A model generated the notes under the pieces. That model was not told the origin of the DNA. It worked only from the letters and a program-made list of their open reading frames with translations, and did not search any database. Positions 4,332 to 60,673 of a stretch of 64,000 nt of DNA are shown here, piece after piece (the stretch's first letter is position 1; each line of letters starts with the position of its first letter). A program made the position numbers and the translations under genes. Origin of the DNA: Eledone cirrhosa (Eukaryota); the NCBI GenBank assembly GCA_964016885.1, contig OZ024741.1, positions 239,382,001-239,446,000 of the forward strand. The letters are read 5' to 3'.

Positions 4332-6683
4332 CTTTGTGGATTTCTGAAGAGATCTGTTCATTGTTGATGTCTTCCAGTCTTCAGGATAATAATGGCTTCT
4401 AGACTGACTATATCTGTCTGATATCTCTCCTCGATTACCTGACATCACAGATACACTGTTGTTACCTTGATAGATCAACTGTCTCATCTCATTACGACAT
4501 TGGTATGCCTGTTTCTCTTCTGTTGTTCTAGCTGAGTTATTTCTTACATTGTTACATCTCACAATACACAATGTTATAGAAACCACAATAGCTATAGATA
4601 CTATCACAGCTGCTACTACAATGATAATCAACAATGTTGCATCTATTGTGTTATCAGTTGGTACATGGACAGCTGTGAACATTGGTGATGTCTTGTTACT
4701 AACAGTCAGTGTTAAAGAGACACTAGTTGTTGCTGACAGAACTGGAGTACCACTGTCTTTCACAACAAACTCCAGTTGATATGATCCAGCATCATTTTGG
4801 TAAACTGTGCGAGAGTAAGATAAGACACCAGTGAATGAGTCCAGTTTAAATAACTGTCTCTCATTACCTGAAAGGATTTCATACCTGAGAAAAGCATTCA
4901 TATGACTGTCTATATCAGAGGCTTTCAGAAGTGTGATGTCATTCTTACTTTGTGGATGATAGTGGACATCAAGAGTGAAAGGGTCAACACTAGGAAATGT
5001 AAAATATGGAGCATTATCATTTTTATCTAATACTTCCACTTCAACATTTACTGTGTTATTTAGAGATGGTGTTCCATTGTCTTTGACTAAAACCTCAAAA
5101 TCATAGAAATCTCTGTGTTCTCTGTCTAAAGATTGGTTTGTTGAAATAAAGCCAGAGTTGATAATCTGGAATGGTAGATGATATTGGTGTTTATTTCTCA
5201 GATAATAACTTAATTCACCTCCCTTACCAACATCTGGGTCTGTAGCATTGATAAAACCAATAGGGAAATTAGCTTTGTCATTTTCATAGGTAAGGAACTT
5301 GAATGTATCTTTGGTAAAGTGTGGTTTTACATCATTCACATCTAACACTTGTATTGAGAGATCTTTATCAGTTTTGAGAGGAGGTAATCCTTTATCTTGA
5401 CAAGAGACAGTGAAGTGATAATGTTCCTGTGTCTCTCTGTCTACTGCTTTCTTTAGAACTATTTTATATTCCTTAGATCCCATTGACTGTAGTTTGAATG
5501 TATCGTGTTTAATATTACAGCTGACCTCTCCATTGTGTCCAACATCATTGTCAGTGACCATCACATAAGCAATGAAACTACCAACTTTGATATCTTCCAG
5601 AATGGTAGCTGTGTTGTGATTTGGTGTAGAAATATAGTTGACATCAATATTTGGAGGATTGTTGTGTTGGTTGATAACATTTACCATAACAGTTGCTATA
5701 GAACTGAGTGGTGGAATTCCATTATCTTTGGCTTTCACATATACTTTAAAAGACTGTTTTTTCCCAAGATTTAAAGGTTTTTCTAAGAACAATTTGCCAC
5801 TACTTTCATTTAAATGAAAATAATTTCTGATCTTCTCATCAGTTTTCTGACTAAAATAGAAAGATATTTTACCATTCCTGCCAATATCTAAATCATTGGC
5901 TGATAATGTCACTACTGGAATATTCTTTTTATGTTTATGTTCTATTGAAACATTGTAGATACGTTGGGAAAATATTGGTATATTATCATTTTCATCTTCA
6001 ACAGATATTCTAACATTTAAAATACTTTGTTTTGGTGGAGTTCCTCCATCTTTAGCAATGACGTCAATATTGAAACTGTCTTTCTTTTCCCTGTCTAATT
6101 TATCTTCTAAAATAATTCCTAATGTTGATAATCCATCATCTTCTTTCGAAACACTTAATGAAAAGTGTTTATCATCATCTCTCAATTGATATTTGATTAA
6201 GCTGTTCTGATATCCTTTATCTTTATCTATGGCATTAGGAATCGTTTTCTTCATACCTCTACCATCTCCTTCCCTAAAATTTAGAGTGATTTCTTTCTCA
6301 GGAAACTCAGGTTGGTGGTCATTGATGTCTTCTATTATGACTTTAATTTTTAATATCTTCATAAATGTCTTGGATTTGTGAACAGCAACTTTAATTATTT
6401 CAAAACATTCTTTCTCATAACTACACACAGACTCAGCATCCAATGTCTGAACAGTGTACAGTTTACCTGTTTTTGTCACATTGAACAATTGTTCTCCCTT
6501 TTGTTGTAGTTGACTAAATGTAATTAAATCCTTATTCTGTAAGAAGGAGCTATCTGATGTCTGTAAGTCAGTAGCAATGTCCCCTACATAAGTATAGGGA
6601 TTACTCTCTTCTTTAACATGGTATGTGATATATTCACTAAGATAACAGTGGAAGAAAGTCAGTAAAATGCAGAAAAATAACAT
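4332..6683 (-). CDS. Pcdh: Protocadherin A, large exon (signal peptide, EC1-EC6, TM, proximal tail; 784 codons)
   Basis: Six cadherin repeats (DRE, DxNDxxPxF, AxDxD motifs), EC1 C-x5-C, hydrophobic TM; donor AAG|GTAAAG at 4332/4331; acceptor at 6740. Confidence 0.96.
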
Positions 6684-7324
6684 CTCTGCTCCTGATGGTA
6701 ATACAATATCCAGATGAAAGGTAGTTATAAATGTTCAATCTGAAACAAAACAAAAAAATGATTACATTTACAAGAAATAAATAACTTTTTCCGTCACGAA
6801 AACAACATTGTATAATACCTGATTAAAATGTTTCTCGTATGGTATTTGATATAATGTAAAAGTCTATATATATATTTATATATATGTGTGTGGGGGGGGG
6901 GGGGGGGGGGAAGTGTGTGTGTGTATATATATGTGTATATATACATATTACTGAGTCACAGGAACAATAGAATATTGTTGGTTTAGCACTGGTTTACACC
7001 CATTTAAGCTGATTGTACAAATTTTAAATATTTACATTCTGGTTTATTCCAAACTCTTAACTGTATTGTCAGTTTTAATATGACTTTCAGATAAAGCAAC
7101 ACATATTTATGATAAACACTTTGAAGTAAATAGAGTAAAACTTCTACTTATACTACAACTGAAAATGAGACAGCAATATTGTGAGCATGATGGTAGCTAA
7201 ATTATATCAGATATAAATCCATTTCTTCAGAATATTTAACTAAACAGCACCATGTATATTTATGGGAAATTAAAACTGATTGTATTACATTAAAATCGGA
7301 TTTTGATTGAAAATAATACGAATA

Positions 7325-7339: not shown

Positions 7340-7404
7340 TTCGACATACCGACAACAGAGAAATTAATTCTTAACGGAAACATTTTAATAACTATAATAT
7401 ATAT

Positions 7405-8640
7405 AATAAAATAATAATTAAATTGTTGTGTACAGTGCTCAGGTGCACTACAACTCATCAAAGGCGAATGTATAGTACATAGAATAGTGTATAAATGTCA
7501 GGAGAGTGAACAGTGTATGAGTCCATGTGTGCATGTGTATGGAGGAGGGATATCGTGTAGTGTTGGCGGATTTCAGGAAGCATGGAGGTTTTAAAGGATG
7601 AAGTGTCCCGGCAGCTAACAACTGATGCAGGTAGTTTGTTCCATGCTTCAGCAACTCTGAACATGAAAAAATGTTTCCGAAAGTCATGGGAGCTTTCTGA
7701 CTTTGTAGGCATGCCCACAGGTGTTAGACACATGGAATTCAAAAAGGTGCTCAGGGTTGTTGTTGGCAAAATGGTTAATAATTTTGTGAGTGTTTACTAA
7801 GTCAGTTGCCAGACGTCGGAGCTTCAATGTATCCATGCCCAGGGAAGTAAGGCGTTCAGAGTATGGTAGATGTCTGATGGAGGGTATTCACTTGGTTGCA
7901 TGTCTCTGAACAGTTTCCAGGAGGTCACTGTTCTGAGCAAGATAGGGGTTCCAGACTGGAGATGCAAATTCTAAGTGTGGCCACACCATAGCTATAAACA
8001 GCTTTAAACAGATAGCTGGAGAGCGGCTGACAATGGTCTTGCTGAGTGATGCCAAGCCACCCTCTGCCTTCTTGACAATTTTAGAGATGTGCTTTATCCA
8101 ATGCAAATCGCTGCTGACAGTAATGCCCAGGTCACATTGACAAGAAGGCTTCTTGATATTAGTGTTGTGGAGGGAGTACGTGGACACTGGGTTTTTCCTC
8201 CCAAAATGCATGGTGGTACACTTGTCCACAGCCAACTTGAGTTGCCAGGCCATGATCCATTGCTGCATTGTGTCCAGGTCTGATTGCAGGAAAAATCTAT
8301 AGTGTTCAGGATCTGTCCTTTTTATCTCAAGGTACAGCTTGATGTCATCTGCATATTTCAGCACTGTGGCATTCTTTAAGTTGGCATCTATGTCGTTCAT
8401 ATATGCAACAAACAAAAGGGGACCAAGAACAGATCCCTGCAGTACACCAGATGACATCTCATAAGGTGAAGAATGCTGTCCTAAAACTGTGACTACCTCT
8501 TTTCGACTGAGAATGAAGGACTTCAACCAGTTAAAAAGATCATCTCTCACACCCATTGCAGAGACTTTTGCCATAAGTTTTTTGTGTGACACAGAATTGA
8601 AAGCTTTAGCAAAGTCAAGGAATCAGTGATCCGGGTGATG
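7405..8640 (-). mobile_element. 5'-truncated CR1-type LINE fragment
   Basis: ORF 7888-8592 with SGVLQGSVLGPLLF and KYADD RT motifs; HFFMFRVAEAWNKLP C-terminus; AT-repeat 3' tail. Confidence 0.88.
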
Positions 8641-9843: not shown

Positions 9844-9874
<31 letters not shown>

Positions 9875-12410: not shown

Positions 12411-13559
12411 ACTGAAGAAAATTCAGATTTATATTTGAAATTAAACGGTATTAAACAGTAATGATAAATTCAGATTTATCTTCTAAACAGATCAACATTT
12501 CCTATGTTTAACATTTTATATTCAATAAGTTTTTTCCAATAATTACAATATACCATTTTGTCAACATATCTACCTCAGCTTAAGATACATAATTTTACCA
12601 ATTTGGATATCTCCTTCAATAAAAGAATTTCCTTAAAGTAATATCATTCATTACTTCACTTTAATTATTACATAAGTAGCTAGCTAATGGTTAAAAAAAA
12701 GTGCATCGTTACAATAGTATTAAACCTGGGGAAAAAGTCTTCTATAAATCAAATATTCATAACATTAAATTGTTGCAGAATTTAGCAAGAGGCTTGCAAC
12801 AGAATATCATATATTTTGATTAAATATCAAAACAGAATTATATGAAACCACTTAATGTAGGATATCTTACACAAAATAAATAGTTAGCTAATTTATATTT
12901 GATTCCTACAGTTTAAAATAGAAATAAAATTATGTAAAATTTAAAACATATCACCAATGAATTTGATTATAACATTCTGAAATATGAATCAAATATTTAG
13001 TGGCAATCCTCTTCAAACCTACTTCAGTAATTTTGTTGTTTGGCGTGTGTACATTTTTATCTAGGAGATCTATGATGAAACACATGCCAGGTGCACTTGA
13101 TTTTACAAATTGTGACAAATTTTGGATGTATGTGTGAATGATGACCATCAATATTTTTCATAAAGACTTCAGGACAGAGATTACTCAGTTTTTATTGGAT
13201 TAAGATATGTCAATATGAATGGAAATTGTTGAAATATTACTTATATTTTTATAAATTATATTTAGTAGATAAGAAAACATATTTCAACATAAAATAATAA
13301 TCCTTATTAGACTTACCATAAATAAAGATTACCATACCCTTACAATGAGTGTGGGGGTACATATAACTGCAATACCATAACAAAAAATACTAATACATAT
13401 TAATTTTATTATCTGTCAACAATATCTTTGAAAAACCTCAATTTCTATATCTCAATGACATACTTATTCAATATTTAATAGCTAGCAAGATCATACAATG
13501 TTTTCACAGTAATTCAGTAAAATATATATAATAAGTAATGTTAAAATATAATAAATAAG

Positions 13560-14250
13560 ATAAATTTTGTAAATACATCAAAGATGACAGCAAATATTTC
13601 CAGAAGTATGTTATATAAAACTACAATTCAACATATATTCCTCTCTCTCACTGTTTCTTACAAAATACTTGATAGCCATGTTGGTAAAGAAGACATTCAA
13701 TGAGAACTAACACAGATCTAATATGGCCACCATTACAATATTATATTTTGATGTTATAATATGGCTATATATGAAGTTATTTTACATGACTGGATAAATA
13801 ATATAGAATAATAAAACTTACATTCATTGTGTAAAGTCCTTTGTTACAAACTGAGTTGGTCCCAATGTTCTGTTGTTAATGGTTGTCTGTGTCACTGCTG
13901 CTATGGTGTGACAATGGCTTCATGTTGATGGAATAGTGTTGGTAGTGAGTCAGTGGGAACCAGCAGTTCCTGTCTTCTGTGTATGTGTGATGTTTACTGA
14001 GTGTGAGTGTGTGTGAGAGAGAGAGGTGGGGGAGGGTGATGCTTACTCCAGCCTCACTCAGACTAGATGTGTTTCCCCTCACAGAGAAGAGGGAGAGAGA
14101 GAGAAGACACAATATCCGCTCCACTCACAGTCAGCCATAATGTCTATATAATACCAACATGTCTGATGTAGAGAGACTGACATAGAAATATTTAGAAGAG
14201 AGAGGTTATATTAACAAAATATGGCTGATGCTGTTAATGTCTATGTAATA
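13560..14250 (-). other. Conserved 3' non-coding block (probable 3' UTR) of gene B
   Basis: Near-identical copies downstream of genes C-G: ~25940-26660, 35330-36010, 47810-48510, 54915-55745, 63345-64000. Confidence 0.7.
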
Positions 14251-14572
14251 TAAAATGTATCTAAATTATCTATAATAATGGTTAGCGTGTGGTTGACCTA
14301 ATTTTAAACTAACTAAACCTACAGATGTTATGTTACCTCGCATCATTATCACAGTTTTGTCCATCATTACATGTTAAATATTTTTCCTCAAATATAAAAT
14401 TTATAATATATTGTACTTATTATTTATCTATAACATAATTCAATTTATATTTTGTAAAGTTTATCTATTATTATTGTAGAAATTTCCCTATTATATTTCC
14501 CTTAATATTATCAAACTAATATACTTCTATATTGGAGGTGATATTTCTGTTGTGTTAACTCCTCAGTCTGAC

Positions 14573-14691
14573 TTAACTGACAACAACATCTGGTGTTGAA
14601 GGTAACTGTCTCTCTGGAGGTTTCACATATCTGTCTTGGTAATGGTCTCTCTCATTGTTGCTTGAGACATCAGGTGGGACACCATAGATTC
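14573..14691 (-). CDS. Pcdh: Protocadherin B, last coding exon
   Basis: Paralogous 119-nt coding segment, TTTCAG acceptor, TAA stop. Confidence 0.85.
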
Positions 14692-15153: not shown

Positions 15154-15304
15154 CTGACATTGCTGGTATTTCTTCATACTGTCTACTTGACCTTTCACTC
15201 CAGCATTGTCCACTACTCTTACGACTGGTCAATGTATCAGTGGGATAGTTTGAAGATGGTCTGTTGTCTCCATAAGATGTCACCTCTATAGGTTGACTGT
15301 ATTT
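15154..15304 (-). CDS. Pcdh: Protocadherin B, cytoplasmic exon 2
   Basis: 151-nt paralogous exon with AG/GT boundaries. Confidence 0.88.
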
Positions 15305-16723: not shown

Positions 16724-19078
16724 CTTTGTGGATTTTTGAAGAGATCTGTTCATTGTTGATGTCTTCCAGTCTTCAGGATAATAATGGCTTCTAGACTGAC
16801 TATATCTGTCTGATATCTCTCCTCGATTACCTGACATCACAGATACACTGTTGTTACCTTGATAGATCAACTGTCTCATCTCATTACGACATTGGTATGC
16901 CTGTTTCTCTTCTGTTGTTCTAGCTGAGTTATTTCTTACATTGTTACATCTCACAATACACAATGTTATAGAAACCACAATAGCTATAGATACTATCACA
17001 GCTGCTACTACAATGATAATCAACAATGTTGCATCTATTGTGTTATCAGTTGATACAGGGACAGCTGTGAACATTGGTGATGTCTTGTTACTAACAGTCA
17101 GTGTTAAAGAGACACTAGTTGTTGCTGACAGAACTGGAGTACCACTGTCTTTCACAACAAACTCCAGTTGATATGATCCAGCATCATTTTGGTAAACTGT
17201 GCGAGAGTAAGATAAGACACCAGTGAATGAGTCCAGTTTAAATAATTGTCTCTCATTACCTGAAAGGATTTCATACCTGAGAAAAGCATTCATGTGACTG
17301 TCTATATCAGAGGCTTTCAGAAGTGTGATGTCATTCTTACTTTGTGGATGATAGTGTATATCAAGAGTGAAAGGGTCAACACTAGGAAATGTAAAATATG
17401 GAGCATTATCATTTTTATCTAATACTTCCACTTCAACATTCACTGTGTTATTTAGAGATGGTGTTCCATTGTCTTTGACAAAAACCTCAAAGTCATAGAA
17501 ATCTCTGTGTTCTCTGTCTAAAGACTGGTTTGTTGAAATAAAGCCAGAGTTGATAATCTGGAATGGTAGACGATATTGGTGTTTATTTCTCAGATAATAA
17601 CTTAATTCACCTCCCTTACCAACATCTGGGTCTGTAGCATTGATAAAACCAATAGGGAAATTAGCTTTGTCATTCTCATAGGTAAGGAACTTGAATGTAT
17701 CTTTGGTAAAGTGTGGTTTTACATCATTCACATCTAACACTTGTATTGAGAGATCTTTATCAGTTTTCAGAGAAGGTAATCCTTTATCTTGACAAGAGAC
17801 AGTAAAGTGATAATGTTCCTGTGTCTCTCTGTCTACTGCTTTCTTTAGAATTATTTTATATTCCTTAGATCCCATTGACTGTAGTTTGAATGTATCATGT
17901 TTGATATTACAGCTGACCTCTCCATTGTGTCCAACATCATTGTCAGTGACCATCACATAAGCAATGAAACTACCAACTTTGATATCTTCCAGAATAGTAG
18001 CTGTGTTGTGATTCTCTGTAGAAATATAGTTGACATCAATATTTGGAGGATTGTTGTGTTGGTTGATAACATTTACCATAACAGTTGCTATGGAACTGAG
18101 TGGTGGACTGCCATTATCTCTGGCTTTCACATACAATTTATATGATTGTTTTTTTTCCAGATTTAAAGGTTTTTCTAAGTATAATTTGCCACTACTTTCA
18201 TTTAAATGAAAATAATTTTTGATCTTTTCATCAGTTTTTTGACTAAAATAGAAAGATATTTTACCATTCCTGCCAATATCTAAATCATTGGCAGATAATG
18301 TCACTATTGGAATATTGTTTTTATGTTTATGTTCTATAGACACATTGTAGATACGTTGGGAAAATTTTGGTATATTATCATTTTCATCTTCAACAGATAT
18401 TCTAACATTTAAAATACTTTGTTTTGGTGGAGTTCCTCCATCTTTAGCAATGACCTCAATATTGTAACTGTCTTTCTTTTCCCTATCTAATTTATCTTCT
18501 AAAATAATTCCTAATGTTGATAATCCATCATCTTCTTTCGAAACACTTAATGAAAAATGTTTGGTATCATCTTTCAGTTCATATTTAATTAAACTGTTCT
18601 GATATCCTTTATCTTTATCAATGGCATTAGGAATCGTTTTCTTCATACCATCTCGATCTCCTTCACCAAACATTAGATTGATTTCTTTCTCAGGAAACTC
18701 AGGTTGGTGGTCATTGATGTCTTCTATTATGACTTTAATTTTCAATATCTTCATAAATGTCTTGGATTTGTGAACTGCAACTTTAACTATTTCAAAACAT
18801 TCTTTCTCATAACTACACACAGACTCAGCATCCAATGTCTGAACAGTGTACAGTTTACCTGTTTTTGTCACATTGAACAACTGTTCTCCTTTTTGTTGTA
18901 GTTGACTGAATGTAATTAAATCCTTATTCTTTAAGAAGGAGTTATCTGATGTCTGTAAGTCAGTAGCAATGTCCCCTACATAAGTATAGGGATTTCTCTC
19001 TTCTTTAACATGGTATGTGATATGTTCACTTAGATAACAGTGGAAGAAAGTCAGTAAAATACACAGAAATAACAACAT
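16724..19078 (-). CDS. Pcdh: Protocadherin B, large exon (785 codons)
   Basis: 6 EC + TM ORF; donor AAG|GTAACC; acceptor at 19135. Confidence 0.96.
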
Positions 19079-28839: not shown

Positions 28840-31194
28840 CTTTGTGGATTTTTGGAGAGATCTGTTCATTGTTGATGTCTTCCAGTCTTCAGGATAGTAA
28901 TGACTTCTAGACTGACTATATCTGTCTGATATCTCTCCTCGATTACCTGACATCACAGATACACTGTTGTTACCTTGATAGATTAACTGTCTCATCTCAT
29001 TACGACATTGGTATGCCTGTTTCTCGTCTGCTGTTCTAGCTGAGTTATTTCTCACATTGTTACATCTCACAATACACAATGTTATAGAAACCACAATAGC
29101 TATAGATACTATCACAGCTGCTACTACAATGATAATTAACAATGTTGCATCTATTGTGTTATCAGTTGGTACATGGACAGCTGTGAACATTGGTGATGTC
29201 TTGTTACTAACAGTCAGTGTTAAAGAGACACTAGTTGTTGCTGACAGAACTGGAGTACCACTGTCTTTCACAACAAACTCCAGTTGATATGATCCGGCAT
29301 CATTTTGGTAAACTGTGCGAGAGTAAGATAAGACACCAGTGAATGAGTCCAGTTTAAATAACTGTCTCTCATTACCTGAAAGGATTTCATACCTGAGAAA
29401 AGCATTCATGTGACTGTCTATATCAGAGGCTTTCAGAAGTGTGATGTCATTCTTACTTTGTGGATGATAATGGACATCAAGAGTGAAAGGGTCAACACTA
29501 GGAAATGTAAAATATGGAGCATTATCATTTTTATCTAATACTTCCACTTCAACATTCACTGTGTTATTTAGAGATGGTGTTCCATTGTCTTTGACTAAAA
29601 CCTCAAAGTCATAGAAATCTCTGTGTTCTCTGTCTAAAGATTGGTTTGTTGAAATAAAGCCAGAGTTGATAATCTGGAATGGTAGATGATATTGGTGTTT
29701 ATTTCTCAGATGATAACTTAATTCACCTCCCTTACCAGCATCTGGGTCTGTAGCATTGATAAAACCAATAGGGAAATTAGCTTTGTCATTCTCATAGGTA
29801 AGGAACTTGAATGTATCTTTGGTAAAGTGTGGTTTTACATCATTCACATCTAACACTTGTATTGAGAGATCTTTATCAGTTTTGAGAGGAGGTAATCCTT
29901 TATCTTGACAGGAGACAGTGAAGTGATAATGTTCCTGTGTCTCTCTGTCTACTGCTTTCTTTAGAACTATTTTATATTCTTTAGATCCCATTGACTGTAG
30001 TTTGAATGTATCATGTTTGATATGACAGCTGACCTCTCCATTGTGTCCAACATCATTGTCAGTGACCATCACATAAGCAATGAAACTACCAACTTTGATA
30101 TCTTCCAGAACGGTAGCTGTGTTGTGATTTGGTGTAGAAATAAAGTTGACATCAATATTTGGAGGATTGTTCTGTTGGTTGATAACATTTATCATAACAA
30201 TTGCTAAGGAACTAAGAGGAGGAATTCCATTATCTTTGACCTTCACATACAATTTATATGATTGTTTTTTATCAAGATTTAAAGGCTTTTGTAAGTATAT
30301 TCTCCCAGTAGTTTCATTTAAAAGAAAATAATTTCTTATTTTCATCTCTGTTTTCTGACTAAAATAGAAAGATATTTTGCCATTCCTACCAATATCTAAA
30401 TCATTGGCAGATAATGTCACTACTGGAATATTTTTCTTATGGTCATGTTCCATAGAGACATTGTAGATACTTTGAGAAAATTGTGGTTTGTTATCATTTT
30501 CATCTTCTACAGATATTTTCACATTTAAAATACTTTGTTTTGGTGGAGTTCCTCCATCTTTAGCAATGACTTCAATATTGTAGCTGTCTTTTTTTTCTCT
30601 GTCTAATTTCTTTTCTAAAATAACACCTAATGTTGAAATTCCATCAGCTTCTTTGGAAACACTTAATGAAAAATGTTCATCATCATCTTTCAGTTCATAT
30701 TTAATTAAGCTGTTCTGATATCCTTTATCTTTATCTATGGCATTAGGAATCGTTTTCTTCATACCATCTCGATCTCCTTCCCCAAACATAAGAGTGATGT
30801 CTTTCTCAGGAAACTCAGGTTGGTGGTCATTGATGTCTTCTATTATGATTTTAATTTTTAAAATCTTCATAAATGTCTTGGATTTGTGAACAGCAACTTT
30901 CACTATTTCAAAACATTCTTTCTCATAACTACACACAGACTCAGCATCCAATGTCTGAACAGTGTACAGTTTACCTGTTTTTGTCACATTGAACAATTGT
31001 TCTCCCTTTTGTTGTAGTTGACTAAATGTAATTAAATCCTTATTCTTTAAGAAGGAGCTATCTGATGTCTGTAAGTCAGTAGCAATGTCCCCTACATAAA
31101 TATAGGGATTACTCTCTTCTTTAACATGATATGTGATATGTTCACTTAGATAACAGTTGAAGAAAGTCAGTAAAATACACAGAAATAACAACAT
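28840..31194 (-). CDS. Pcdh: Protocadherin C, large exon (785 codons)
   Basis: 6 EC + TM ORF; donor AAG|GTAAAG; acceptor at 31252. Confidence 0.96.
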
Positions 31195-42848: not shown

Positions 42849-45200
42849 CTTTGTGGATTTCTGAAGAGATCTGTTCATTGTTGATGTCTTCCAGTCTTCA
42901 GGATAGTAATGGCTTCTAGACTGACTATATCTGTCTGATATCTCTCCTCGATTACCTGACATCACAGATACACTGGTGTTACCTTGATAGATCAACTGTC
43001 TCATCTCATTACGACATTGGTATGCCTGTTTCTCTTCTGTTGTTCTAGCTGAGTTATTTCTCACATTGTTACATCTCACAATACACAATGTTATAGAAAC
43101 CACAATAGCTATAGATACTATCACAGCTGCTACTACAATGATAATCAACAATGTTGCATCTATTGTGTTATCAGTTGGTACATGGACAGCTGTGAACATT
43201 GGTGATGTCTTGTTACTAACAGTCAGTGTTAAAGAGACACTAGTTGTTGCTGACAGAACTGGAGTACCACTGTCTTTCACAACAAACTCCAGTTGATATG
43301 ATCCGGCATCATTTTGGTAAACTGTACGAGAGTAAGATAAGACACCAGTAAATGAGTCCAGTTTAAATAATTGTCTCTCATTACCTGAAAGGATTTCATA
43401 CCTGAGAAAAGCATTCATGTGACTATCTATATCAGAGGCTTTCAGAAGTGTGATGTCATTCTTACTTTTTGGATGATAGTGGACATCAAGAGTGAAAGGG
43501 TCAACACTAGGAAATGTAAAATATGGAACATTATCATTTTTATCTAATACTTCCACTTCAACATTTACTGTGTTATTTAGAGATGGTGTTCCATTGTCTT
43601 TGACTAAAACCTCAAAGTCATAGAAATCTCTGTGTTCTCTGTCTAGAGATTGGTTTGTTGAAATAAAGCCAGAGTTGATAATCTGGAATGGTAGACGATA
43701 TTGGTGTTTATTTCTCAGATAATAACTTAATTCACCTCCCTTACCAACATCTGGGTCTGTAGCATTGATAAAACCAATAGGGAAATTAGCTTTGTCATTC
43801 TCATAGGTAAGGAACTTGAATGTATCTTTGGTAAAGTGTGGTTTTACATCATTCACATCTAACACTTGTATTGAGAGATCTTTATCAGTTTTGAGAGGAG
43901 GTAATCCTTTATCTTGACAAGAGACAGTGAAGTGATAATGTTCCTGTGTCTCTCTGTCTACTGCTTTCTTTAGAACTATTTTATATTCCTTAGATCCCAT
44001 TGACTGTAGTTTGAATGTATCATGTTTGATATTACAGCTGACTTCTCCATTATGTCCACCATCATTGTCAGTGACCATCACATAAGCAATGAAACTACCA
44101 ACTTTGATATCTTCCAGAATGGTAGCTGTGTTGTGATTTGGTGTAGAAATAAAGTTGACATCAATATTTGGAGGATTGTTGAGTTGGTTGATAACATTTA
44201 TCATAACAATTGCTATGGAACTAAGAGGAGGAATTCCATTATCTTTGGCCTTCACATACAATTTATATGATTGTTTTTTATCCAGATTTAAAGGATTCTC
44301 TAAATATATTCTCCCACTACTTTCATTTAAATGAAAATAATTTCTCATTTTCACCTCTGTTTTCTGACTAAAATAGAAAGATATTTTACCATTCCTGCCA
44401 ATATCTAAATCATTGGCAGATAATGTCACTACTGGAATATTCTTTTTATGTAAATGTTCTATAGAGACATTGTAGATACTTTTGGAAAATTCTGGTTTAT
44501 TATCATTTTCATCTTTTACAGATATTTTAACATTTAAAATACTTTGCTTTGCTGGAGTTCCTCCATCTTTAGCAATGACTTCAATATTGTAGCTGTCTTT
44601 CTTTTCTCTGTCTAATTTATCTTCTAAAATAATTTCTAATGTTGATATTCCATCTGCTTCTTTGGAAACACTCAATAAAAAATGTCTCTCATTATCCTGT
44701 AATTCATATTTAATTAAACTGTTTTGATATCCCACATCTTTGTCCACAGCATTGGGTATTGATAGTTTTGATCCTCTGCTGTCTCTCTCTGAAAACTGAA
44801 TATTTACTTGTTCAGTTGGAAACTCAGGCTGGTGGTCATTGATGTCTTCTATTATGACTTTAATTTTTAATATCTTCATAAATGTCTTGGATTTGTGAAC
44901 AGCAACTTTAATTATTTCAAAACATTCTTTCTCATAACTACACACAGACTCAGCATCTAATGTCTGAACAGTGTACAGTTTACCTGTTTTTGTCACATTG
45001 AACAATTGTTCTCCCTTTTGTTGTAGTTGACTAAATGTAATTAAATCCTTATTTTTTAAGAAGGAGCTATCTGATGTCTGTAAGTCAGTAGCAATGTCCC
45101 CTACATAGGTATAGGGATTTCTCTCTTCTTTAACATGGTATGTGATATCTTCACTTAGATAACAGTGGAAGAAAGTCAGTAAAATACACAGAAATAACAT
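42849..45200 (-). CDS. Pcdh: Protocadherin D, large exon (784 codons)
   Basis: 6 EC + TM ORF; donor AAG|GTAAAC; acceptor at 45257. Confidence 0.96.
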
Positions 45201-46274
45201 CTCTGCTTCTGATGTTAATGCAGTATCCAGGGAAAGGTAAGCTTCAAAAATTCAATCTGAAACAAACAATTATTACTATATTAATAAAAAATAAATATTG
45301 TTTCCTTAAAAAAATGCTCAATAAAACATCAAAATATTTGTTTCAGCAGTCATGTATTGTGATATTTAATATGATGTAAAAATAATCTTTCTATATTTTA
45401 CTGAGCCACAGGAACAATAGAATATTGTTCTGTTTTAGCACTGATTTACATCCATTTAGTCTGGTTGTACAAGTCTACAAGTCAGTACTGAAGTGGGGCT
45501 ACTGACATCCCAGGTAGGCCGAAGAGGTCTGTATCCCACTTATAAAAGGTCATTATTGAGTGCAGAGGAGAAGTTGACGTGCCTTTTGACAAAAAACAGA
45601 AAGATCCTCCTAACCTCTTGTTCGGAAAGCTTTCTATGGCTGAAAGCCCTACCTAACACCAACCACTTTACAGCATCTACTGGGTGCTTTTATTATGTAG
45701 TTCACCAACACTAGGGAGGATGTCATGTCCTTGAGATAACTAAAGCGTCTTCTCAATCCTTTGTTTGGCAAGCTTTCTATGGCTGGATGCCCTTCCTATC
45801 ATCAACCACTTTACAGCGTGTACTGGGTGCATTTATCATGTAGAACACCAACACAAGAGTGGTTGCTGTATCTTTGCCACAACTCAAGGATCCTCGCAAC
45901 CCTTTTAGGCATGGTTTCTACAAGGTGTCCTTCCTTTCGGCAACCACTCATACGGAGTACACCGGATACATTTAAATATTTACATTCTGGTTTATTAATT
46001 CAAACCTTTAGTAACTATAACCAGTCTTAATATGACTTTCAGATAAAAGCAACATCTATTTATGATAAACACTTTGGAGTAAATGGAGTAAAACTTGTAC
46101 TTAAGGAATATCACTTTAACTACACCTGAAGATGAGACAGCAATATTATGAGCAATACTGTAGCGAAATTATATCAGATATAAATCCATTTCTGCAGAAT
46201 ATATAATTAAACAACACTATATATTATATTTTTATGTGAAAATAAAGTTTTTTTGAATTACATTATATATGATA

Positions 46275-49241: not shown

Positions 49242-49392
49242 CTGACATTGCTGGTATTTCTTCATACTGTCTACTTGACCTTTCACTCCAGCACTGTCCA
49301 CTACTCTTACGACTGGTCAATGTATCAGTGGGATAGTTAGAAGATGGTCTGTTGTCTCCATAAGATGTCACCTCTATAGGTTGACTGTATTT
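49242..49392 (-). CDS. Pcdh: Protocadherin E, cytoplasmic exon 2
   Basis: 151-nt paralogous exon; CACCAG acceptor. Confidence 0.88.
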
Positions 49393-49921: not shown

Positions 49922-52267
49922 CTTTGTGGATTTCTGAAGAGATCTGTTCATTGTTGATGTCTTCCAGTCTTCAGGATAGTAATGACTTCTAGACTGACTA
50001 TATCTGTCTGATATCTCTCCTCGATTACCTGACATCACAGATACACTGTTGTTACCTTGATAGATCAACTGTCTCATCTCATTACGACATTGGTATGCCT
50101 GTTTCTCTTCTGTTGTTCTAGCTGAGTTATTTCTCACATTGTTACATCTCACAATACACAATGTTATAGAAACCACAATAGCAATAGATACTATCACAGC
50201 TGCTACTACAATGATAATCAACAATGTTGCATCTATTGTGTTATCAGTTGGTACATGGACAGCTGTGAACATTGGTGATGTCTTGTTACTAACAGTCAGT
50301 GTTAAAGAGACACTAGTTGTTGCTGACAGAACTGGAGTACCACTGTCTTTCACAACAAACTCCAGTTGATATGATCCAGCATCATTTTGATAAACTGTGC
50401 GAGAGTAAGATAAGACACCAGTGAATGAGTCCAGTTTAAATAATTGTCTCTCATTACCTGAAAGGATTTCATACCTGAGAAAAGCATTCATGTGACTGTC
50501 TATATCAGAGGCTTTCAGAAGTGTGATGTCATTCTTACTTTGTGGATGATAGTGGACATCAAGAGTGAAAGGGTCAACACTAGGAAATGTAAAATATGGA
50601 GCATTATCATTTTTATCTAATACTTCCACTTCAACATTCACTGTGTTATTTAGAGATGGTGTTCCATTGTCTTTGATAAAAACCTCAAAGTCATAGAAAT
50701 CTCTGTGTTCTCTGTCTAAAGACTGGTTTGTTGAAATAAAGCCAGAGTTGATAATCTGGAATGGTAGACGATATTGGTGTTTATTTCTCAGATAATAACT
50801 TAATTCACCTCCCTTACCAACATCTGGGTCTGTAGCATTGATAAAACCAATAGGGAAATTAGCTTTGTCATTCTCATAGGTAAGGAACTTGAATGTATCT
50901 TTAGTAAAGTGTGGTTTTACATCATTCACATCTAACACTTGTATTGATAGATCTTTATCAGTTTTGAGAGGAGGTAGTCCTTTATCTTGACAGGAGACAG
51001 TAAAGTGATAATGTTCCTGTGTCTCTCTGTCTACTGCTTTCTTTAGAACTATTTTATATTCCTTAGATCCCATTGACTGTAGTTTGAATGTATCATGTTT
51101 GATATCACAGCTGACCTCTCCATTGTCTCCAACATCATTGTCAGTGACCATCACATAAGCAATGAAACTACCAACTTTGATATCTTCCAGAATGGTAGCT
51201 GTGTTGTGATTCTCTGTAGAAATATAGTTGACATCAATATTTGGAGGATTGTTCTGTTCACTGATAACATTTATCTGAATTATTGCAAGGGAACTGAGAG
51301 GAGAACTGCCATCATCTTTGGCTTCCACATATAATTTAAATTTCTGATTTTTTCCAATTTCTAATGATTTTTTCAAGTATAATTTTCCAGTAATTTCATT
51401 CAAACGAAAATAATTTCTTGACTTTACATCAGTTTTCTGACTGAAATAGAAATATATTTTACCATTCCTACCAATATCTAAATCATTGGCAGATAATGTC
51501 ACTATTGGAATATTCTTTTTATGGTCATGTTCCATAGAAACATTATAGATAGTCTGGGTAAATTGTGGTGTGTTATCATTTTCATCCTCTACTGATATTT
51601 TAACATTTAAAATACTTTGTTTTGGTGGAGTTCCTGCATCTTTAGCAATGACTTCAATGTTGTAACTGTCTTTTTTTTCTCTGTCTAATTTCTTTTCTAA
51701 AATGATACCTAATGTTGATATTTCATCAGCTAATTTTGATTGAGATAAGGAAAAATGTTCATTTTTTAATTCATATTTAATTAAGCTGTTTTGGTATCCC
51801 ACATCTTTGTCTACAGCATTAGGTATGGCCTTCTTCATACCTCTACCATCTCCTTCCCTAAAATTTAGAGTGATGTCTTTCTGAGGAAACTCAGGTTGGT
51901 GGTCATTGATGTCTTCTATTATGACTTTAATTTTTAATATCTTCATAAATGTCTTGGATTTGTGAACAGCAACTTTAATTATTTCAAAACATTCTTTCTC
52001 ATAACTACACACAGACTCAGCATCCAATGTCTGAACAGTGTACAGTTTACCTGTTTTTGTCACATTGAACAATTGTTCTCCCTTTTGTTGTAGTTGACTA
52101 AATGTAATTAAATCCTTATTTTTTAAGAAGGAGCTATCTGATGTCTGTAAGTCAGTAGCAATGTCCCCTACATAGGTATAGGGATTTCTCTCTTCTTTAA
52201 CATGGTATGTGATATCTTCACTTAGATAACAGTGGAAGAAAGTCAGTAAAATACACAGAAATAACAT
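49922..52267 (-). CDS. Pcdh: Protocadherin E, large exon (782 codons, 2-aa deletion in EC2)
   Basis: 6 EC + TM ORF; donor AAG|GTAAAG; acceptor at 52324. Confidence 0.96.
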
Positions 52268-52788
52268 CTCTGCTTCTGATGTTAATGCAGTATCCAGGGA
52301 AAGGTAAGCTTCAAAAATTCAATCTGAAACAAACAATTATTACTATATTAATAAAAAATAAATATTGTTTCCTTAAAAAAATGCTCAATAAAACATCAAA
52401 ATATTTGTTTCAGCAGTCATGTATTGTGATATTTAATATGATGTAAAAATAATCTTTCTATATTTTACTGAGCCACAGGAACAATAGAATATTGTTCTGT
52501 TTTAGCACTGATTTACATCCATTTAGTCTGGTTGTACAAGTCTACAAGTCAGTACTGAAGTGGGGCTACTGACATCCCAGGTAGGCCGAAGAGGTCTGTA
52601 TCCCACTTATAAAAGGTCATTATTGAGTGCAGAGGAGAAGTTGGCGTGCCTTTTGACACAAACAGAAAGATCCTCGTAACCTCTTGTTTGGAAAGCTTTC
52701 TATGGCTGAAAGTCCTTCCTAACACCAACCACTTTACAGCATGTACTGAGTGCTTTTATTATGTAGTTTACCAACGCTAGGGAGGATG

Positions 52789-52971
52789 TCATGTCCTTGA
52801 GATAGCGATGTCCCCTACATAGGTATAGGGGCTCATCTCTTCTTTAACATGGTATGTGATATGTTCACTTAGATAACAGTGGAATAAAGTCTGTAAAATA
52901 CACAGAAATAACATCTCCGGTCTTGATGTTAATACAGTATCCTGGAGAAATTACAGCTTCAAATATTTAAT
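52789..52971 (-). pseudogene. Stranded Pcdh 5' fragment (acceptor, 5' UTR, ATG, 37 Pcdh codons, then ISRT*)
   Basis: MLFLCILQTLFHCYLSEHITYHVKEEMSPYTYVGDIA from ATG 52914; intact TTTCAG acceptor at 52972; TGA at 52789-52791. Confidence 0.9.
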
Positions 52972-53255
52972 CTGAAACAGAAACAATTTCAATATATTAA
53001 TGGTGTCTGATATGTTAAGTCTTGTCTTCCATTTTTTTTCTCATGAAAACAACAGTGCGCAAAATGATATCTAAATGAAATCCAATTAAGTTTATGTGAA
53101 TGTGTGTGCTGAAACAGTTAATGGCTATTAAGGCAGAGACATGATGACAATCAAAACACCTGCACTGTTTATCTTTCACTTTAGTTTTATTATTTATCTG
53201 GTAATTATTCAATCACTCAGTTGATTAATATTAAAATATAGTCATAATAAGAAGC

Positions 53256-56116: not shown

Positions 56117-56235
56117 TTAACTGGCAACAACATCTGGTGTTGAAGGTAACTGTCTCTCTGGAGGTTTCACATATCTGTCTTGGTAATGGTCTCTCTCATT
56201 GTTGCTGGATACATCAGGTGGGACACCATAGATTC
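56117..56235 (-). CDS. Pcdh: Protocadherin F, last coding exon
   Basis: Paralogous 119-nt coding segment ending DVVAS*. Confidence 0.85.
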
Positions 56236-57102: not shown

Positions 57103-57253
57103 CTGACATTGCTGGTATTTCTTCATACTGTCTACTTGACCTTTCACTCCAGCACTGTCCACTACTCTTACGACTGGTTAATGTATCAGTGGGATAGTTA
57201 GAAGATGGTCTGTTGTCTCCATAAGATGTCACCTCTATAGGTTGACTGTATTT
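57103..57253 (-). CDS. Pcdh: Protocadherin F, cytoplasmic exon 2
   Basis: 151-nt paralogous exon; CAACAG acceptor. Confidence 0.88.
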
Positions 57254-58321
57254 CTGTTGTAAAATATTGTTAAGGATAGAATTTTTGAATGTAGACTTAA
57301 AATATCTTCAATTTCTAGCTAAAAATGGGTGTTAAAATATTGGATCAATATAAACAAAAACATCAATTCTATAGATCCTCATCTGACCACTTTCATTCAT
57401 ACCATAGAAAATGTATCCAGTACAATTTATTCTAAGGTTTTAGATGTTGCAAAAAGTGATTTTAAAGCGTAATATATTTCGAAAAGATATCTAGTAATAC
57501 AAGCTATGTCAATCAAAGGGTTGAAAGCAATCATTGTTGTGTTAACAACATAATCTTACATGTAATGGTGCAACAATAAAACCTACCCAGTACACCCAAA
57601 TAAAGTGGTTGGTGATAAAAAGGGAAACCAGATGTTGCATCAATGTCAAAATTGGAATATATACTAGCAAGATATGGTCCCTGAGTCATCTGGGAGAACA
57701 GTAGTTCAGATTAAATACTGACTTCGTCTGTAATAACCCAGTTAACCCATCTTATCGAGGGAAAACAGGCGTTAAATGATAATGGTGATCCCACAGAAGA
57801 AGAAAATAAACAAGGCACTTTAGGCTTTCCTTTATTGGTGATAGTCAAAATTTATATTTTGAGTGAGTTGTTGGTACAAAATTGGTGTCATAGTAGTCGG
57901 GGAAATTCACTGGTTACTATAAAGAAATACATTTTACAAAGGTATCAGAATTATGCAGCATTGTGTGGTTCCACAATGGTAGCTAAAATCCAATTGGCAA
58001 GTCTTAAGTTACTCTAACTAAAAATGAAATGGTTCTGGTTCTACAATATATGAATACAACATGGATTCTCATGTCAGTTGCCTTGTTAGGAATTCATTGA
58101 CCAACAAGTTACAAAGAGCAACTCATAGATTACTTAATAATTGATTAGGTAATATTTCTAAATTGTGATACATTATCACCAAGATATTCTAAAAAAAAAA
58201 AAAACTATGTGCAATTAAAAACTGTACATAAATTGCTAATTTAAGAAGTAAACATGAAATTTATGATATTCAATTATATTCTTCTTAATTTACAAATTGT
58301 AAAAAAACAAATAGACTTTAC

Positions 58322-60673
58322 CTTTGTAGATTTCTGAAGAGATCTGTTCATTGTTGATGTCTTCCAGTCTTCAGGATAGTAATGGCTTCTAGACTGACTA
58401 TATCTGTCTGATATCTCTCCTCGATTACCTGACATCACAGATACACTGTTGTTACCTTGATAGATCAACTGTCTCATCTCATTACGACATTGGTATGCCT
58501 GTTTCTCTTCTGTTGTTCTAGCTGAGTTATTTCTCACATTGTTACATCTCACAATACACAATGTTATAGAAACCACAATAGCAATAGATACTATCACAGC
58601 TGCTACTACAATGATAATCAACAATGTTGCATCTATTGTGTTATCAGTTGGTACATGGACAGCTGTGAACATTGGTGATGTCTTGTTACTAACAGTCAGT
58701 GTTAAAGAGACACTAGTTGTTGCTGACAGAACTGGAGTACCACTGTCTTTCACAACAAACTCCAGTTGATATGATCCGGCATCATTTTGGTAAACTGTGC
58801 GAGAGTAAGATAAGACACCAGTGAATGAGTCCAGTTTAAATAACTGTCTCTCATTACCTGAAACGATTTCATACCTGAGAAAAGCATTCATGTGACTGTC
58901 TATATCAGAGGCTTTCAGAAGTGTGATGTCATTCTTACTTTGTGGATGATAGTGGACATCAAGAGTGAAAGGGTCAACACTAGGAAATGTAAAATATGGA
59001 GTATTATCATTTTTATCTAATACTTCCACTTCAACATTCACTGTGTTATTTAGAGATGGTGTTCCATTGTCTTTGACAAAAACCTCAAAGTCATAGAAAT
59101 CTCTGTGTTCTCTGTCTAAAGACTGGTTTGTTGAAATAAAGCCAGAGTTGATAATCTGGAATGGTAGACGATATTGGTGTTTATTTCTCAGATAATAACT
59201 TAATTCACCTCCCTTACCAACATCTGGGTCTGTAGCATTGATAAAACCAATAGGGAAATTAGCTTTGTCATTCTCATAGGTAAGGAACTTGAATGTATCT
59301 TTGGTAAAGTGTGGTTTTACATCATTCACATCTAAGACTTGTATTGAGAGATCTTTATCAGTTTTCAGAGAAGGTAATCCTTTATCTTGACAAGAGACAG
59401 TAAAGTGATAATGTTCCCGTGTCTCTCTGTCTACTGCTTTCTTTAGAACTATTTTATATTCCTTAGATCCCATTGACTGTAGTTTGAATGTATCATGTTT
59501 GATATTACAGCTGACTTCTCCATTGTGTCCAACATCATTGTCAGTGACCATCACATAAGCAATGAAACTACCAACTTTGATATCTTCCAGAATGGTAGCT
59601 GTGTTATGATTCTCTGTAGAAATGTAGTTGACATCAATATTTGGAGGATTGTTGTGTTGGTTGATAACATTTACCAGAACAGTTGCTATGGCACTGAGTG
59701 GTGGACTGCCATTATCTCTGGCTTCAATATATAATTTTAAAAATTCTTCTTTATCAATTTCTGAAGATTTAGCTAAATATAACTTTCCTGTATTTTCATC
59801 TAAATTAAAGTATCTTTTCATTTTCTCTGCAGTTTTCGTAGCAAAATAGAAAGATATTTTACCATTCCTGCCAATATCTAAATCATTGGCAGATAATGTC
59901 ACGACTGGAATATTCTTTTTATGCTTATGTTCTATAGAGACATTGTAGATACTTTGAGAAAACTGTGGTTTATTATCATTTTCATCTTCTACAGATATTT
60001 TAACATTCAAAATACTTTGTTTTGGTGGAGTTCCTCCATCTTTAGCAATAATTTCAATATTGTAACTGTCTTTCTTTTCTCTGTCTAATTTATCTTCTAA
60101 AATAATTTCTAACGTTGATATTCCACCTGCTTGTTTGGAAACACTTAATGAAAATTGTCCTTCATTATCAAGAAGCTCATATTTAATTAGACTGTTCTCA
60201 TATCCCACATCTTTATCAACCGCATTGGGTATTGATCTCTTGGTGTTTTTACTATCAGTTTCAGAAAACTGAATATTGACTTGTTCTGTTGGAAACTCAG
60301 GTTGGTGGTCATTGATGTCTTCTATTATGACTTTAATTTTCAATATCTTCATAAATGTCTTGGATTTGTGAACAGCAACTTTCACTATTTCAAAACATTC
60401 TTTCTCATAACTACACACAGACTCAGCATCCAATGTCTGAACAGTGTACAGTTTACCTGTTTTTGTCACATTAAACAATTGTTCTCCCTTTTGTTGTAGT
60501 TGACTAAATGTAATTAAATCCTTATTCTTTAAGAAGGAGCTATCTGATGTCTGTAAGTCAGTAGCAATGTCCCCTACATAAGTATAGGGATTACTCTCTT
60601 CTTTAACATGGTATGTGATATGTTCACTTAGATAACAGTGGAAGAAAGTCAGCAAAATACACAGAAATAACAT
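58322..60673 (-). CDS. Pcdh: Protocadherin F, large exon (784 codons)
   Basis: 6 EC + TM ORF; donor AAG|GTAAAG; acceptor at 60722. Confidence 0.96.

Follow-up and report, generated by a model that had tools for sequence, protein, structure and literature searches.

Conversion-like homogenisation that spares EC2 and EC3 in a tandem array of octopod protocadherin genes

Exchange between paralogues homogenises the exons encoding EC1, EC4-EC6, the transmembrane segment (TM) and the tail of octopod protocadherins within each lineage, a conclusion that is held here with great confidence. Given this homogenisation, it is probable, on the comparative evidence described below, that selection for specificity keeps EC2-EC3 diverse, and the combination of exchange with such selection is the best explanation overall, which we favour with some reserve. 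The exchange would be gene conversion, perhaps together with unequal crossover, keeping EC1, EC4-EC6, TM and tail near-identical, while selection would remove conversions that equalise the binding surfaces of two paralogues, so that EC2-EC3 stays diverse.

The window, that is, the whole 64-kb stretch of Eledone cirrhosa DNA analysed, contains six complete protocadherin genes, A-F, in tandem and all on the minus strand, as are all features listed here. In gene A, the large coding exon (4332..6683) encodes the signal peptide, EC1-EC6, TM and the proximal tail, includes a variable EC2-EC3 segment (about 5664-6299) and ends with a GT donor after STK; the 151-nt tail exon 2 (2817..2967, with AG/GT ends and in frame) and the coding part of exon 3 up to the stop (269..387) complete a spliced ORF of 873 aa with no stop inside it. 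The large exon, EC2-EC3 segment, exon 2 and exon 3 coding part lie at 16724..19078, about 18056-18691, 15154..15304 and 14573-14691 in gene B; at 28840..31194, about 30172-30807, 27373-27523 and 27041-27159 in gene C; at 42849..45200, about 44181-44816, 41376-41526 and 36449-36567 in gene D; at 49922..52267, about 51254-51883 (with a 2-codon deletion in EC2), 49242-49392 and 48892-49010 in gene E; and at 58322..60673, about 59654-60289, 57103-57253 and 56117-56235 in gene F. Exon 3 of gene B and a 3' UTR-like block common to the other units together span 13358..14691. In runs X4 and X17, a read-contig joint that omits 462 nt matches intron 2 of gene B, possibly with a paralogue as its origin. 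All six genes splice to an intact ORF (871-874 aa), exons 2 and 3 being private to each gene.

A splice acceptor upstream of the ATG in each large exon indicates that first exons lie further 5'. A truncated 5' end of a large exon, with 83-87% identity to A-F, remains as a pseudogene at 52803..53001 and reads acceptor, signal peptide and EC1 start, then stop; at 63236..64000, a 3' UTR-like block, 88-95% identical to those of B-F, belongs to a seventh gene past the window end. Shared constant exons were rejected for A-F, the tail exons being private. A candidate conserved promoter block near 12440-12670 and its copies (73-81% similar) was likewise set aside, as no distinct motif stands out in it and it could instead be distal 3' UTR. 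A-F are whole genes duplicated in tandem, all pointing the same way and each with private tail exons, as are coleoid clustered protocadherins, which also lack shared constant exons (PMC9068888, PMC6339937). The window is regarded, with moderate confidence, as part of an octopod sub-array of old duplicates of this kind.

The proteins have the protocadherin layout of signal peptide, six cadherin repeats, single TM and cytoplasmic tail, and A and F match Pfam PF08266 (the Cadherin_2-type EC1) and carry five PF00028 stretches. Among the matches listed, the closest proteins are protocadherins of O. sinensis, O. vulgaris, O. bimaculoides and Argonauta hians (up to 88% identity); 117 of these 120 matches bear Octopus or Argonauta names, the other three are nameless, and neither squid nor cuttlefish is named among them. 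The top vertebrate match is Xenopus Pcdh8.1 (PDB 6vg1), by sequence (E 1.6e-92) and in a fold search with a predicted model (E 4.6e-42), and identity to solved vertebrate protocadherin structures is about 27-32%. Canonical calcium motifs are not present at every EC junction of the window proteins. DxND-type linkers are found at EC1-2, EC2-3 and EC4-5, and the EC5-6 linker of the six window proteins is DKNDN; the EC3-EC4 linker is NQHNN, as against the canonical DxNDN, and the conserved calcium-binding DRE of EC3 (EF loop position) is absent. The EC3-4 linker has the form N-Q/E-x-N-x in all eight of its commonest forms, which account for 75 of 95 aligned octopod proteins. Because both the EC3 DRE and a canonical EC3-EC4 linker are missing, part of the EC3 diversity may reflect lost constraint, and dimer geometry may differ as well. 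Non-canonical EC3-EC4 motifs are thus found in most of the octopod set and, among vertebrate clustered forms, in mouse alphaC1 (PMC8901172).

The first-pass annotation had placed the diversity of these genes entirely in EC2-EC3, and had cited variable-segment peptides from genes A, D and F, which are present as written; its limits of 5640-60295 span NNPPNIDV of A (starting at 5663) to HQPEFP of F (starting at 60307). The main contrast holds, although "confined" is slightly too strong: 94 of 219 amino acid columns vary among A-F in EC2-EC3, and 30 of 548 in EC1 plus EC4-tail. By domain, variable columns number 7/106 in EC1, 42/111 in EC2, 52/108 in EC3, 9/110 in EC4, 5/105 in EC5, 4/106 in EC6, 2/45 in stalk plus TM, 3/76 in the exon-1 tail and 4/18 in the signal peptide, and pairwise identity from EC1 to EC6 is 97, 80, 75, 96, 98 and 98.5%. 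The supposed homogeneity of EC1 applies to the window, but EC1 is also divergent in outlying genes of related species. Synonymous divergence, estimated for all 15 pairs of A-F (Nei-Gojobori/JC), is far from uniform along the exon, as had been anticipated: dS is 0.50 in EC2, 0.35 in EC3 and 0.025-0.09 in the other domains, or 0.42 pooled over EC2-EC3 versus 0.059 elsewhere, a 7-fold difference. The corresponding dN values are 0.134 and 0.011, giving dN/dS of 0.32 in EC2-EC3 and 0.18 elsewhere, so that no average-level signal of positive selection is seen in EC2-EC3. At four-fold sites of codons with invariant amino acids, 18 of 32 columns vary in EC2-EC3 and 13 of 197 elsewhere (Fisher p 1.7e-10, the columns not being independent). 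Synonymous and amino acid variation are correlated when the exon is taken as a whole (rho 0.52, 39 windows) and uncorrelated within EC2-EC3 (rho 0.15, p 0.66, 11 windows). GC3 is 0.19-0.24 in EC2-EC3 versus 0.26-0.35 elsewhere (per-gene p 0.004-0.06); GC-biased conversion is not claimed, as four-fold GC does not follow this pattern (EC2 0.18, EC3 0.32, others 0.11-0.27).

Between A-F, identity reaches 97.7% in exon 2 and 96.9% in exon 3; three of the intron ends are at 67-70% and the 3' end of intron 2 at 80%, with 63% for shuffled 150-nt intron-1 ends as the control, and the 3' UTR-like blocks are 79-90% identical between units. It could be supposed that this homogeneity is an artefact of assembly or polishing, produced by the merging of reads that came from similar copies. 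Polishing could inflate identity, and run X1 may derive from the same sample as the window; however, each copy carries private substitutions in its homogenised parts, and the pattern recurs in the protein sets of O. sinensis, O. vulgaris and Argonauta. Single high-depth contigs over EC5-EC6 also speak against such an artefact. Error-free contigs of run X1 have depths of 285 for EC5 and 220 for EC6, versus 5-9 for unique non-coding contigs, which is a hint only, and in run X5, from a second organism, single EC5-EC6 contigs have depths of 605-723 versus 19-47 for EC2-EC3 pieces; these depths are of single listed contigs, not sums per bin. An artefact is considered very improbable.

The comparison of lineages was based on a core set of 50 sequences (6 from the window, 25 from Octopus and 19 from Argonauta). 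In this set, the 26 residues diagnostic of a lineage fall without exception outside EC2-EC3, and each of the 53 columns that are polymorphic in every lineage falls inside. FastTree trees of 68 sequences require 3 lineage changes for EC4-tail, 6 for EC1 and 12 each for EC2 and EC3; the window six form one clade in the EC4-tail tree (support 100), and their monophyly in EC2-EC3 was rejected by the AU test (p 0.019), for which 30 of the 50 core sequences were used. These comparisons of residues and trees show that EC2-EC3 has kept variants older than the divergence of Octopus, Argonauta and the species of the window, and that within-lineage concerted evolution has spared them. Outlier orthologues (P0127_3/P0125 of Octopus and P0034 of Argonauta) are 71-75% identical to each other over EC1-EC3 versus 51-58% to any paralogue of their own lineage, and over EC4-tail they are 94-100% identical to own-lineage paralogues versus 91-95% to each other. 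The same pattern repeats in a second Argonauta subfamily, where EC4-TM is homogenised and EC2-EC3 is spared: among distant octopod protocadherins, EC4-TM identity is at least 90% in 48 of 1031 within-lineage pairs, 46 of them in Argonauta, where it is 99% alongside 86% in EC1 and 69% in EC2-EC3, and EC2-EC3 identity is at least 90% in 1 of the 1031 pairs.

Could the contrast arise without conversion, from recent duplicates in which EC2-EC3 is under rapid positive selection and everything else under strong purifying selection that acts on synonymous sites too? The higher dN/dS of EC2-EC3 and the still considerable identity of the 3' UTR-like blocks would suit such a history. The introns, however, are near random similarity, synonymous sites diverge together with EC2-EC3, and the "conserved" domains differ between lineages (87-95% identity), changing at the 26 diagnostic residues in all paralogues jointly. 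With EC2-EC3 variants common to the lineages, the three-lineage residue comparison largely refutes this explanation, which is left with hardly any credibility. Gene-conversion-like homogenisation outside EC2-EC3, as first proposed, is thus well supported by dS per domain, exon versus intron identity and the cross-species trees.

EC2-EC3 proved to be as diverse as described at first, but it is not free of conversion, being pieced together from short modules that have been exchanged. The rate of incompatibility between neighbouring informative sites is 0.28 versus 0.52 after permutation (p 0.0002), and gene D is a mosaic, resembling E in EC1, F at the start of EC2 and C at the end of EC3. A mosaic of short modules means that the region is reshuffled, not simply protected; the same modules are present in three lineages, and old EC2-EC3 variants have been shuffled between paralogues in this form. 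A recent exchange tract links D (44818..45576, covering upstream intron, signal peptide and EC1) and E (51885..52643), with 2 mismatches in about 760 nt, and stops at the EC1/EC2 linker; D/E similarity by BLAST reaches 45738, with gaps. As the tract spans more than 300 nt upstream of the acceptor, at least that event took place at the DNA level. Conversion templated by mRNA was rejected as the sole mechanism: identity falls at splice sites, yet the D/E tract crosses the acceptor.

An antiparallel EC1-4 dimer is used by vertebrate delta-protocadherins (PMC5001838, PMC7082078) and was therefore probably inherited, so that convergence would concern the expansion and the restriction of homogenisation to certain domains rather than the interface. 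A-F would form similar trans dimers, in which EC1:EC4 would provide an affinity surface common to all isoforms and EC2:EC3 a surface specific to each; the membrane-proximal part and signalling tail would likewise be common to all. Interface faces were defined strand by strand rather than from the exposure of residues, as A/B/D/E in EC2, which binds EC3 in vertebrate dimers (PMC7082078), and C/F/G in EC3, and the EC2 CD and EC3 EF loops were excluded from the on/off-face test. The expectation that variable residues map to the interface met with mixed results. Diversity in EC2 is enriched on A/B/D/E in the window (p 0.005) and in O. sinensis (p 0.0016), but not significantly in Argonauta (p 0.21); EC3 gave non-significant results in the window (0.27 on-face versus 0.23 off-face, p 0.23) and in Argonauta (p 0.25), and three of the six domain-by-lineage combinations are significant. 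Off-face elements are among the most variable (EC2 CD loop 0.59, EC3 EF loop 0.45, EC3 E strand 0.44). The EC2 DE loop and the EC3 Phe-X10-Phe loop, both named specificity regions (PMC5001838), are variable in A-F, and every pair of paralogues shows 10-41 differences across 95 on-face positions. Over EC1-4, A and B share 93.6% identity, more than a mouse pair that is strictly homophilic at 92% identity (PMC8901172). A predicted EC1-4 homodimer of A, computed without alignment, scored 0.01 and was counted neither way. For the proposed convergent EC2/EC3 recognition code, the EC2 face bias and the spared domains are favourable, but the unclear EC3 face and the dN/dS level are not.

These mixed face results bear on two further explanations. 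According to one, conversion is real, but EC2-EC3, as the least constrained part, diverged past the identity threshold for conversion and then drifted neutrally; no partner code would follow, and binding would be promiscuous or the paralogues mainly dosage or expression variants. Such drift would accord with the dN/dS of EC2-EC3, the high variability of off-face loops and of the region of the missing EC3 calcium motif, the non-significant EC3 test in two of three lineages, and the conservation of EC1-EC3 at 51-57% versus 66-75% for EC5-EC6 in 79 more distant octopod protocadherins. In the distant genes, however, EC1 (56-57%) is no better conserved than EC2 (55-57%), yet EC1 is homogenised here; exchange inside EC2-EC3 occurs without erasing the modules, which last across three lineages, and EC2 and EC3 are also spared in the second octopod subfamily and in vertebrates (PMC4978886). 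Neutral drift is therefore judged unlikely, although it is the more serious of the two.

Selection may also have kept EC2-EC3 diverse for other ends, such as binding to heterophilic partners or the evasion of ligands, microbial or viral, that attach to the ectodomain. Long-lived shared variants with patchwork exchange are characteristic of parasite-driven systems such as MHC, and the EC2-EC3 variants resemble these in being common to lineages and exchanged piecewise. The variation in EC3 extends over more than one face, and octopus non-neural cells express protocadherins, with a mean of 13 per cell (PMC9712504). Against this, EC1, the membrane-distal and most exposed domain, is homogenised, and the spared region is the one that determines homophilic specificity in vertebrates (PMC5001838, PMC4978886); such other ends are considered improbable, and selection for homophilic specificity is preferred.

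Vertebrate clustered protocadherins, whose expansion is independent of the octopod one (PMC9068888), resemble A-F in encoding all six EC repeats and TM in a single large exon and in showing the highest dS in EC2/EC3 (PMC4978886), with homogenisation outside. Mouse alpha isoforms, with identities of 96, 69, 59, 85, 98 and 84% from EC1 to EC6 (PMC4978886), have a domain profile similar to that of the window genes. The common tail is achieved differently, by homogenised private exons in octopods and by splicing to constant exons in the vertebrate clusters, and A-F, in which variable exons are not joined to shared constant exons and which, given their separate origin (PMC9068888), are not orthologues of the alpha, beta or gamma clusters, do not belong to the vertebrate clustered type. 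The best vertebrate match to A-F is to delta-2 protocadherins, which use the antiparallel EC1-4 dimer (PMC7082078) but do not lie in clusters and bind one another heterophilically to some extent (PMC8901172). Gene conversion in cephalopod protocadherins has been proposed in general terms (Albertin 2022, PMC9068888; Styfhals 2019, PMC6339937); domain-resolved conversion, a cross-species test and EC2-EC3 module shuffling were not found in the available portions of the literature on these genes, and, according to PMC6339937, nothing was known of their adhesion specificity as of 2019.

For studies of these genes, near-identity from EC4 to the tail means that probes, antibodies and short reads cannot separate the paralogues, and whole-protein trees will cluster them by species irrespective of age; the variable modules are candidate segments for binding swaps. 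It is tentatively suggested that octopods possess an identity code independent of that of vertebrates, in which conversion would keep a constant scaffold and shuffle ancient modules into new homophilic specificities, with a calcium-poor EC3-EC4 joint. The scaffold of EC1, EC4-EC6, TM and tail would be a functional substitute for the vertebrate constant exons, and the modules would be the EC2 A/B strands, the EC2 DE loop, the EC3 CD loop, EC3 EF/F and the EC3 G strand. The domain-by-domain match to the vertebrate pattern, reached through a separate expansion and a different build, is indirect evidence for an octopod neuronal identity code, and hints that octopods may independently have built one similar to that of vertebrates.

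The window carries the minus-strand protocadherin genes A-F, all six complete, and the 3' end only of a seventh (63236-64000, minus strand), which is similar to the 3' blocks of the other units. Each gene consists of one large exon encoding the signal peptide, six cadherin repeats (EC1-EC6), the transmembrane segment (TM) and the proximal tail, followed by a 151-nt exon 2 and an exon 3; in A and F the large exon matches Cadherin_2 and five Cadherin stretches (Pfam), and the spliced reading frames of A-F are uninterrupted (871-874 aa). The best 120 of 1328 homologues were, except for three unnamed proteins, Octopus and Argonauta protocadherins, the closest among these being 88% identical, and the tail of F closely matches tails of O. 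sinensis and Argonauta proteins. Judged by these matches, the source is an octopod that is absent from the species named among them. Intron 2 of B (462 nt) was skipped exactly by a contig joint in two runs with little intron cover, for which a paralogue could be the source. The exon 2 acceptors (2967, 15304, 27523, 41526, 49392 and 57253) are tandem CAGCAG in A, B and C and CAACAG or CACCAG in D, E and F; an extra Q in the tail is present in some relatives and absent in others (proteins P0006 vs P0001). Just upstream of gene E lies a pseudogene remnant (52803-53001), a truncated copy of the 5' end of the large exon, which reaches a stop after about 41 codons.

A 368-nt direct repeat (9029-9396 and 10785-11150, 98.9% identical) lies between genes A and B. 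A non-coding block downstream of the 3' UTR-like block (12440-13344; copies near 24655, 34164, 46461 and 62341; 71-81% similar between units) may be distal UTR or regulatory DNA. A reverse-transcriptase fragment was detected at 7888-8622 on the minus strand (PF00078, E 5e-24). Two consecutive ORFs of 366 and 401 codons (21567-23847, plus strand) and a further ORF (19563-20087, minus strand) gave no Pfam match; we take the former to resemble the reverse transcriptase and subsequent GIY-YIG-type nuclease of Penelope-like elements, and the latter is presumably LINE-derived.

The first-pass annotation had claimed diversity in EC2-EC3 and homogenisation of EC1 and EC4 to the tail, and this is borne out: 94 of 219 columns vary among the six genes in EC2-EC3, compared with 30 of 548 across EC1 and EC4-tail. 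Checked per domain and by sliding window, divergence was non-uniform along the exon, rising at about codon 120 and falling at about codon 345, with dS of 0.50 in EC2 and 0.35 in EC3 vs 0.059 in the pooled remainder, and dN of 0.134 in EC2-3 vs 0.011 elsewhere. Four-fold sites of invariant codons were variable at 18 of 32 positions within EC2-3 and at 13 of 197 outside (Fisher p 1.7e-10, the sites not being independent). With dN/dS at 0.32 inside EC2-3 and 0.18 outside, rapid evolution of EC2-EC3 is not demonstrated; the segment appears old and the other domains abnormally young.

Recent duplication is a very improbable explanation: paralogues are 97.7% identical in exon 2 and 96.9% in exon 3, and identity falls off a few bases away from the splice donors, three of the intron ends flanking these exons standing at 67-70% and the fourth at 80% (shuffled intron-1 ends, 63%). 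The 3' UTR-like blocks of five genes are intermediate (79-90%). These values clearly indicate that A-F are old full-gene duplicates. Just as improbable is an artefact; as far as tested, homogenisation does not arise from assembly, given private substitutions in each copy and the same pattern in independent species. Mismatch-free contigs of read set X1 had depths of 285 over EC5 and 220 over EC6 (unique non-coding contigs, 5-9), and in X5, from a second organism, EC5-EC6 contigs reached 605-723 and EC2-3 contigs 19-47; because contig depth is not equal to copy number and X1 is possibly the window's own source sample, this is only a hint that EC5-EC6 stretches are common to tens of copies. In the O. 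bimaculoides proteins P0004, P0043, P0133, P0149, P0164, P0165 and P0167, 11 of 12 gene units (some duplicates) lose their match somewhere in residues 347-459, a break at EC4 or inside it of the kind that assembly collapse of a near-identical EC4-tail would produce.

Comparison among lineages was based on 96 gene units cut from 80 relatives (cluster members being read for 10 clusters only) and the six window genes; of these 102, 80 passed the gap filter and 68 remained after duplicate removal, 50 of which formed the core (EC1 at least 80% identical to A). In the core, EC4-tail identity was higher within lineages (96-99.8%) than between them (87-96%), except for the TM of O. sinensis and Argonauta (99.5% between lineages), and the gap was much smaller in EC2-3 (67-80% vs 63-75%). 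None of the 26 lineage-diagnostic residues lay in EC2-3, whereas each of the 53 columns polymorphic in all three lineages did; the two counts are not independent, as high polymorphism itself makes fixed differences less likely, but together they are the expected signature. Trees of the 68 sequences gave 3 lineage changes in EC4-tail, 6 in EC1 and 12 each in EC2 and EC3, and monophyly of the window six in EC2-3 was rejected (p 0.019; a quick tree of 30 rows, its model violated by recombination). The clearest cases, P0127_3/P0125 (Octopus) and P0034 (Argonauta), are orthologous in EC1-3 and grouped by their own lineage in EC4-tail; a second outlier set is weaker (Argonauta P0035, 88% to both sides). 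As these outliers show, EC1 is not homogenised in every gene. The overall pattern recurs in a second Argonauta subfamily (46 of 496 pairs with EC4-TM 99%, EC1 86% and EC2-3 69%); the corresponding counts are 2 of 325 pairs in O. sinensis/vulgaris and 0 of 210 in O. bimaculoides. Just 1 of 1031 pairs reached at least 90% identity in EC2-3, in a set of cluster representatives at 90% identity that lacks near-identical pairs by construction without choosing the differing domain. Taken together, the comparisons show that EC1, EC4-tail and exons 2-3 are homogenised within lineages and that EC2-3 carries old, cross-lineage-shared, reshuffled variants.

The closest paralogue switches along EC2-EC3, from D+F at the EC2 start to A+B and C+E in the second half of EC2 and C+D and E+F in late EC3. 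Over 79 informative sites, neighbours were incompatible at a rate of 0.28, against 0.52 after permutation (p 0.0002), and the longest identical runs were significant for A/E, A/C, B/C and C/D (p <0.01, uncorrected over 15 pairs). Between D and E, 2 mismatches occur in a shared tract of about 760 nt that starts in the upstream intron; the identity stops at the EC1/EC2 linker. The same module types occur in differing combinations in the window, Octopus and Argonauta, the FSE-type EC2 start being found in 2/6, 8/25 and 9/19 core sequences, respectively. Exchange extends into EC2-EC3 as well, reshuffling variants without erasing them, which goes beyond the first-pass annotation. Gene E, P0135, P0140 unit 2, P0142 and P0023, which span the window species, O. 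sinensis and Argonauta, differ at the EC2 start but carry one and the same set of variants in the EC2 DE loop, the EC3 CD loop and the EC3 G strand; linkage or co-adapted surfaces may underlie this combination.

A convergent EC2/EC3 recognition code had also been proposed. The AlphaFold2 monomer (pLDDT 85, pTM 0.56) matches delta-2 and clustered protocadherin structures, and Pcdh8.1, also matched by fold, is the best sequence match. The contact in vertebrate dimers pairs the A-B-E-D face of EC2 with the C-F-G face of EC3 and has FG loops at its centre (PMC7082078). With faces assigned from the strands of the model, and the EC2 CD and EC3 EF loops excluded, EC2 diversity was higher on-face than off-face in the window (0.28 vs 0.11, p 0.005) and O. 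sinensis (0.30 vs 0.13, p 0.0016), and was 0.31 vs 0.22 in Argonauta (p 0.21); for EC3 the p values were 0.23, 0.007 and 0.25, respectively. Both the EC2 DE loop and the EC3 Phe-X10-Phe loop, which PMC5001838 names as specificity regions, are variable here. Variation is equal or greater in the EC2 CD loop, EC3 E strand and EC3 EF loop, which counts against a code. Neutral escape of EC2-EC3 from conversion, without a code, is unlikely though the strongest rival. Selection of this diversity through some other partner is improbable. The EC3 EF loop lacks the calcium-binding DRE motif, and the EC3-EC4 linker is of NQHNN/NQQNN type, not DxNDN, in every one of the six genes (about 5650-5680 in A, and the equivalent positions in the others). 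Both features recur in most of 95 aligned octopod proteins and point to a joint that is poor in calcium and perhaps flexible within the presumed dimer region. In mouse alphaC1 the linker is incomplete in a similar way, with possible effects on structure and binding (PMC8901172). In vertebrates EC1:EC4 also contributes to specificity (PMC5106212), so the code in those animals is not confined to EC2-EC3. In view of the off-face variation, the non-canonical EC3-EC4 region and this EC1:EC4 role, the face mapping supports the recognition code in part.

On balance we regard as probable an account in which old duplicates were homogenised around a reshuffled EC2-3, the antiparallel EC1-4 dimer would be inherited from an ancestral protocadherin, and selection would remove conversions that equalise the EC2:EC3 surfaces. 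Gene conversion in cephalopod protocadherins was suggested, without domain detail in the accessible text (PMC9068888, PMC6339937), and octopus clusters with large exons (PMC10084454) and about 21 protocadherins per neuron, some cell-type enriched (PMC9712504), are on record. No domain-resolved pattern in cephalopods was found in the literature searched; Albertin 2015, Wang and Ragsdale 2017, Noonan 2004 and the PMC9068888 supplements may already describe part. The observation is real and stronger than first described; the functional claim of a code is testable and unproven. Vertebrate clustered protocadherins have the same, documented domain pattern (PMC4978886), whereas the octopod array expanded independently and is built differently, and module shuffling is the new element beside that known pattern.
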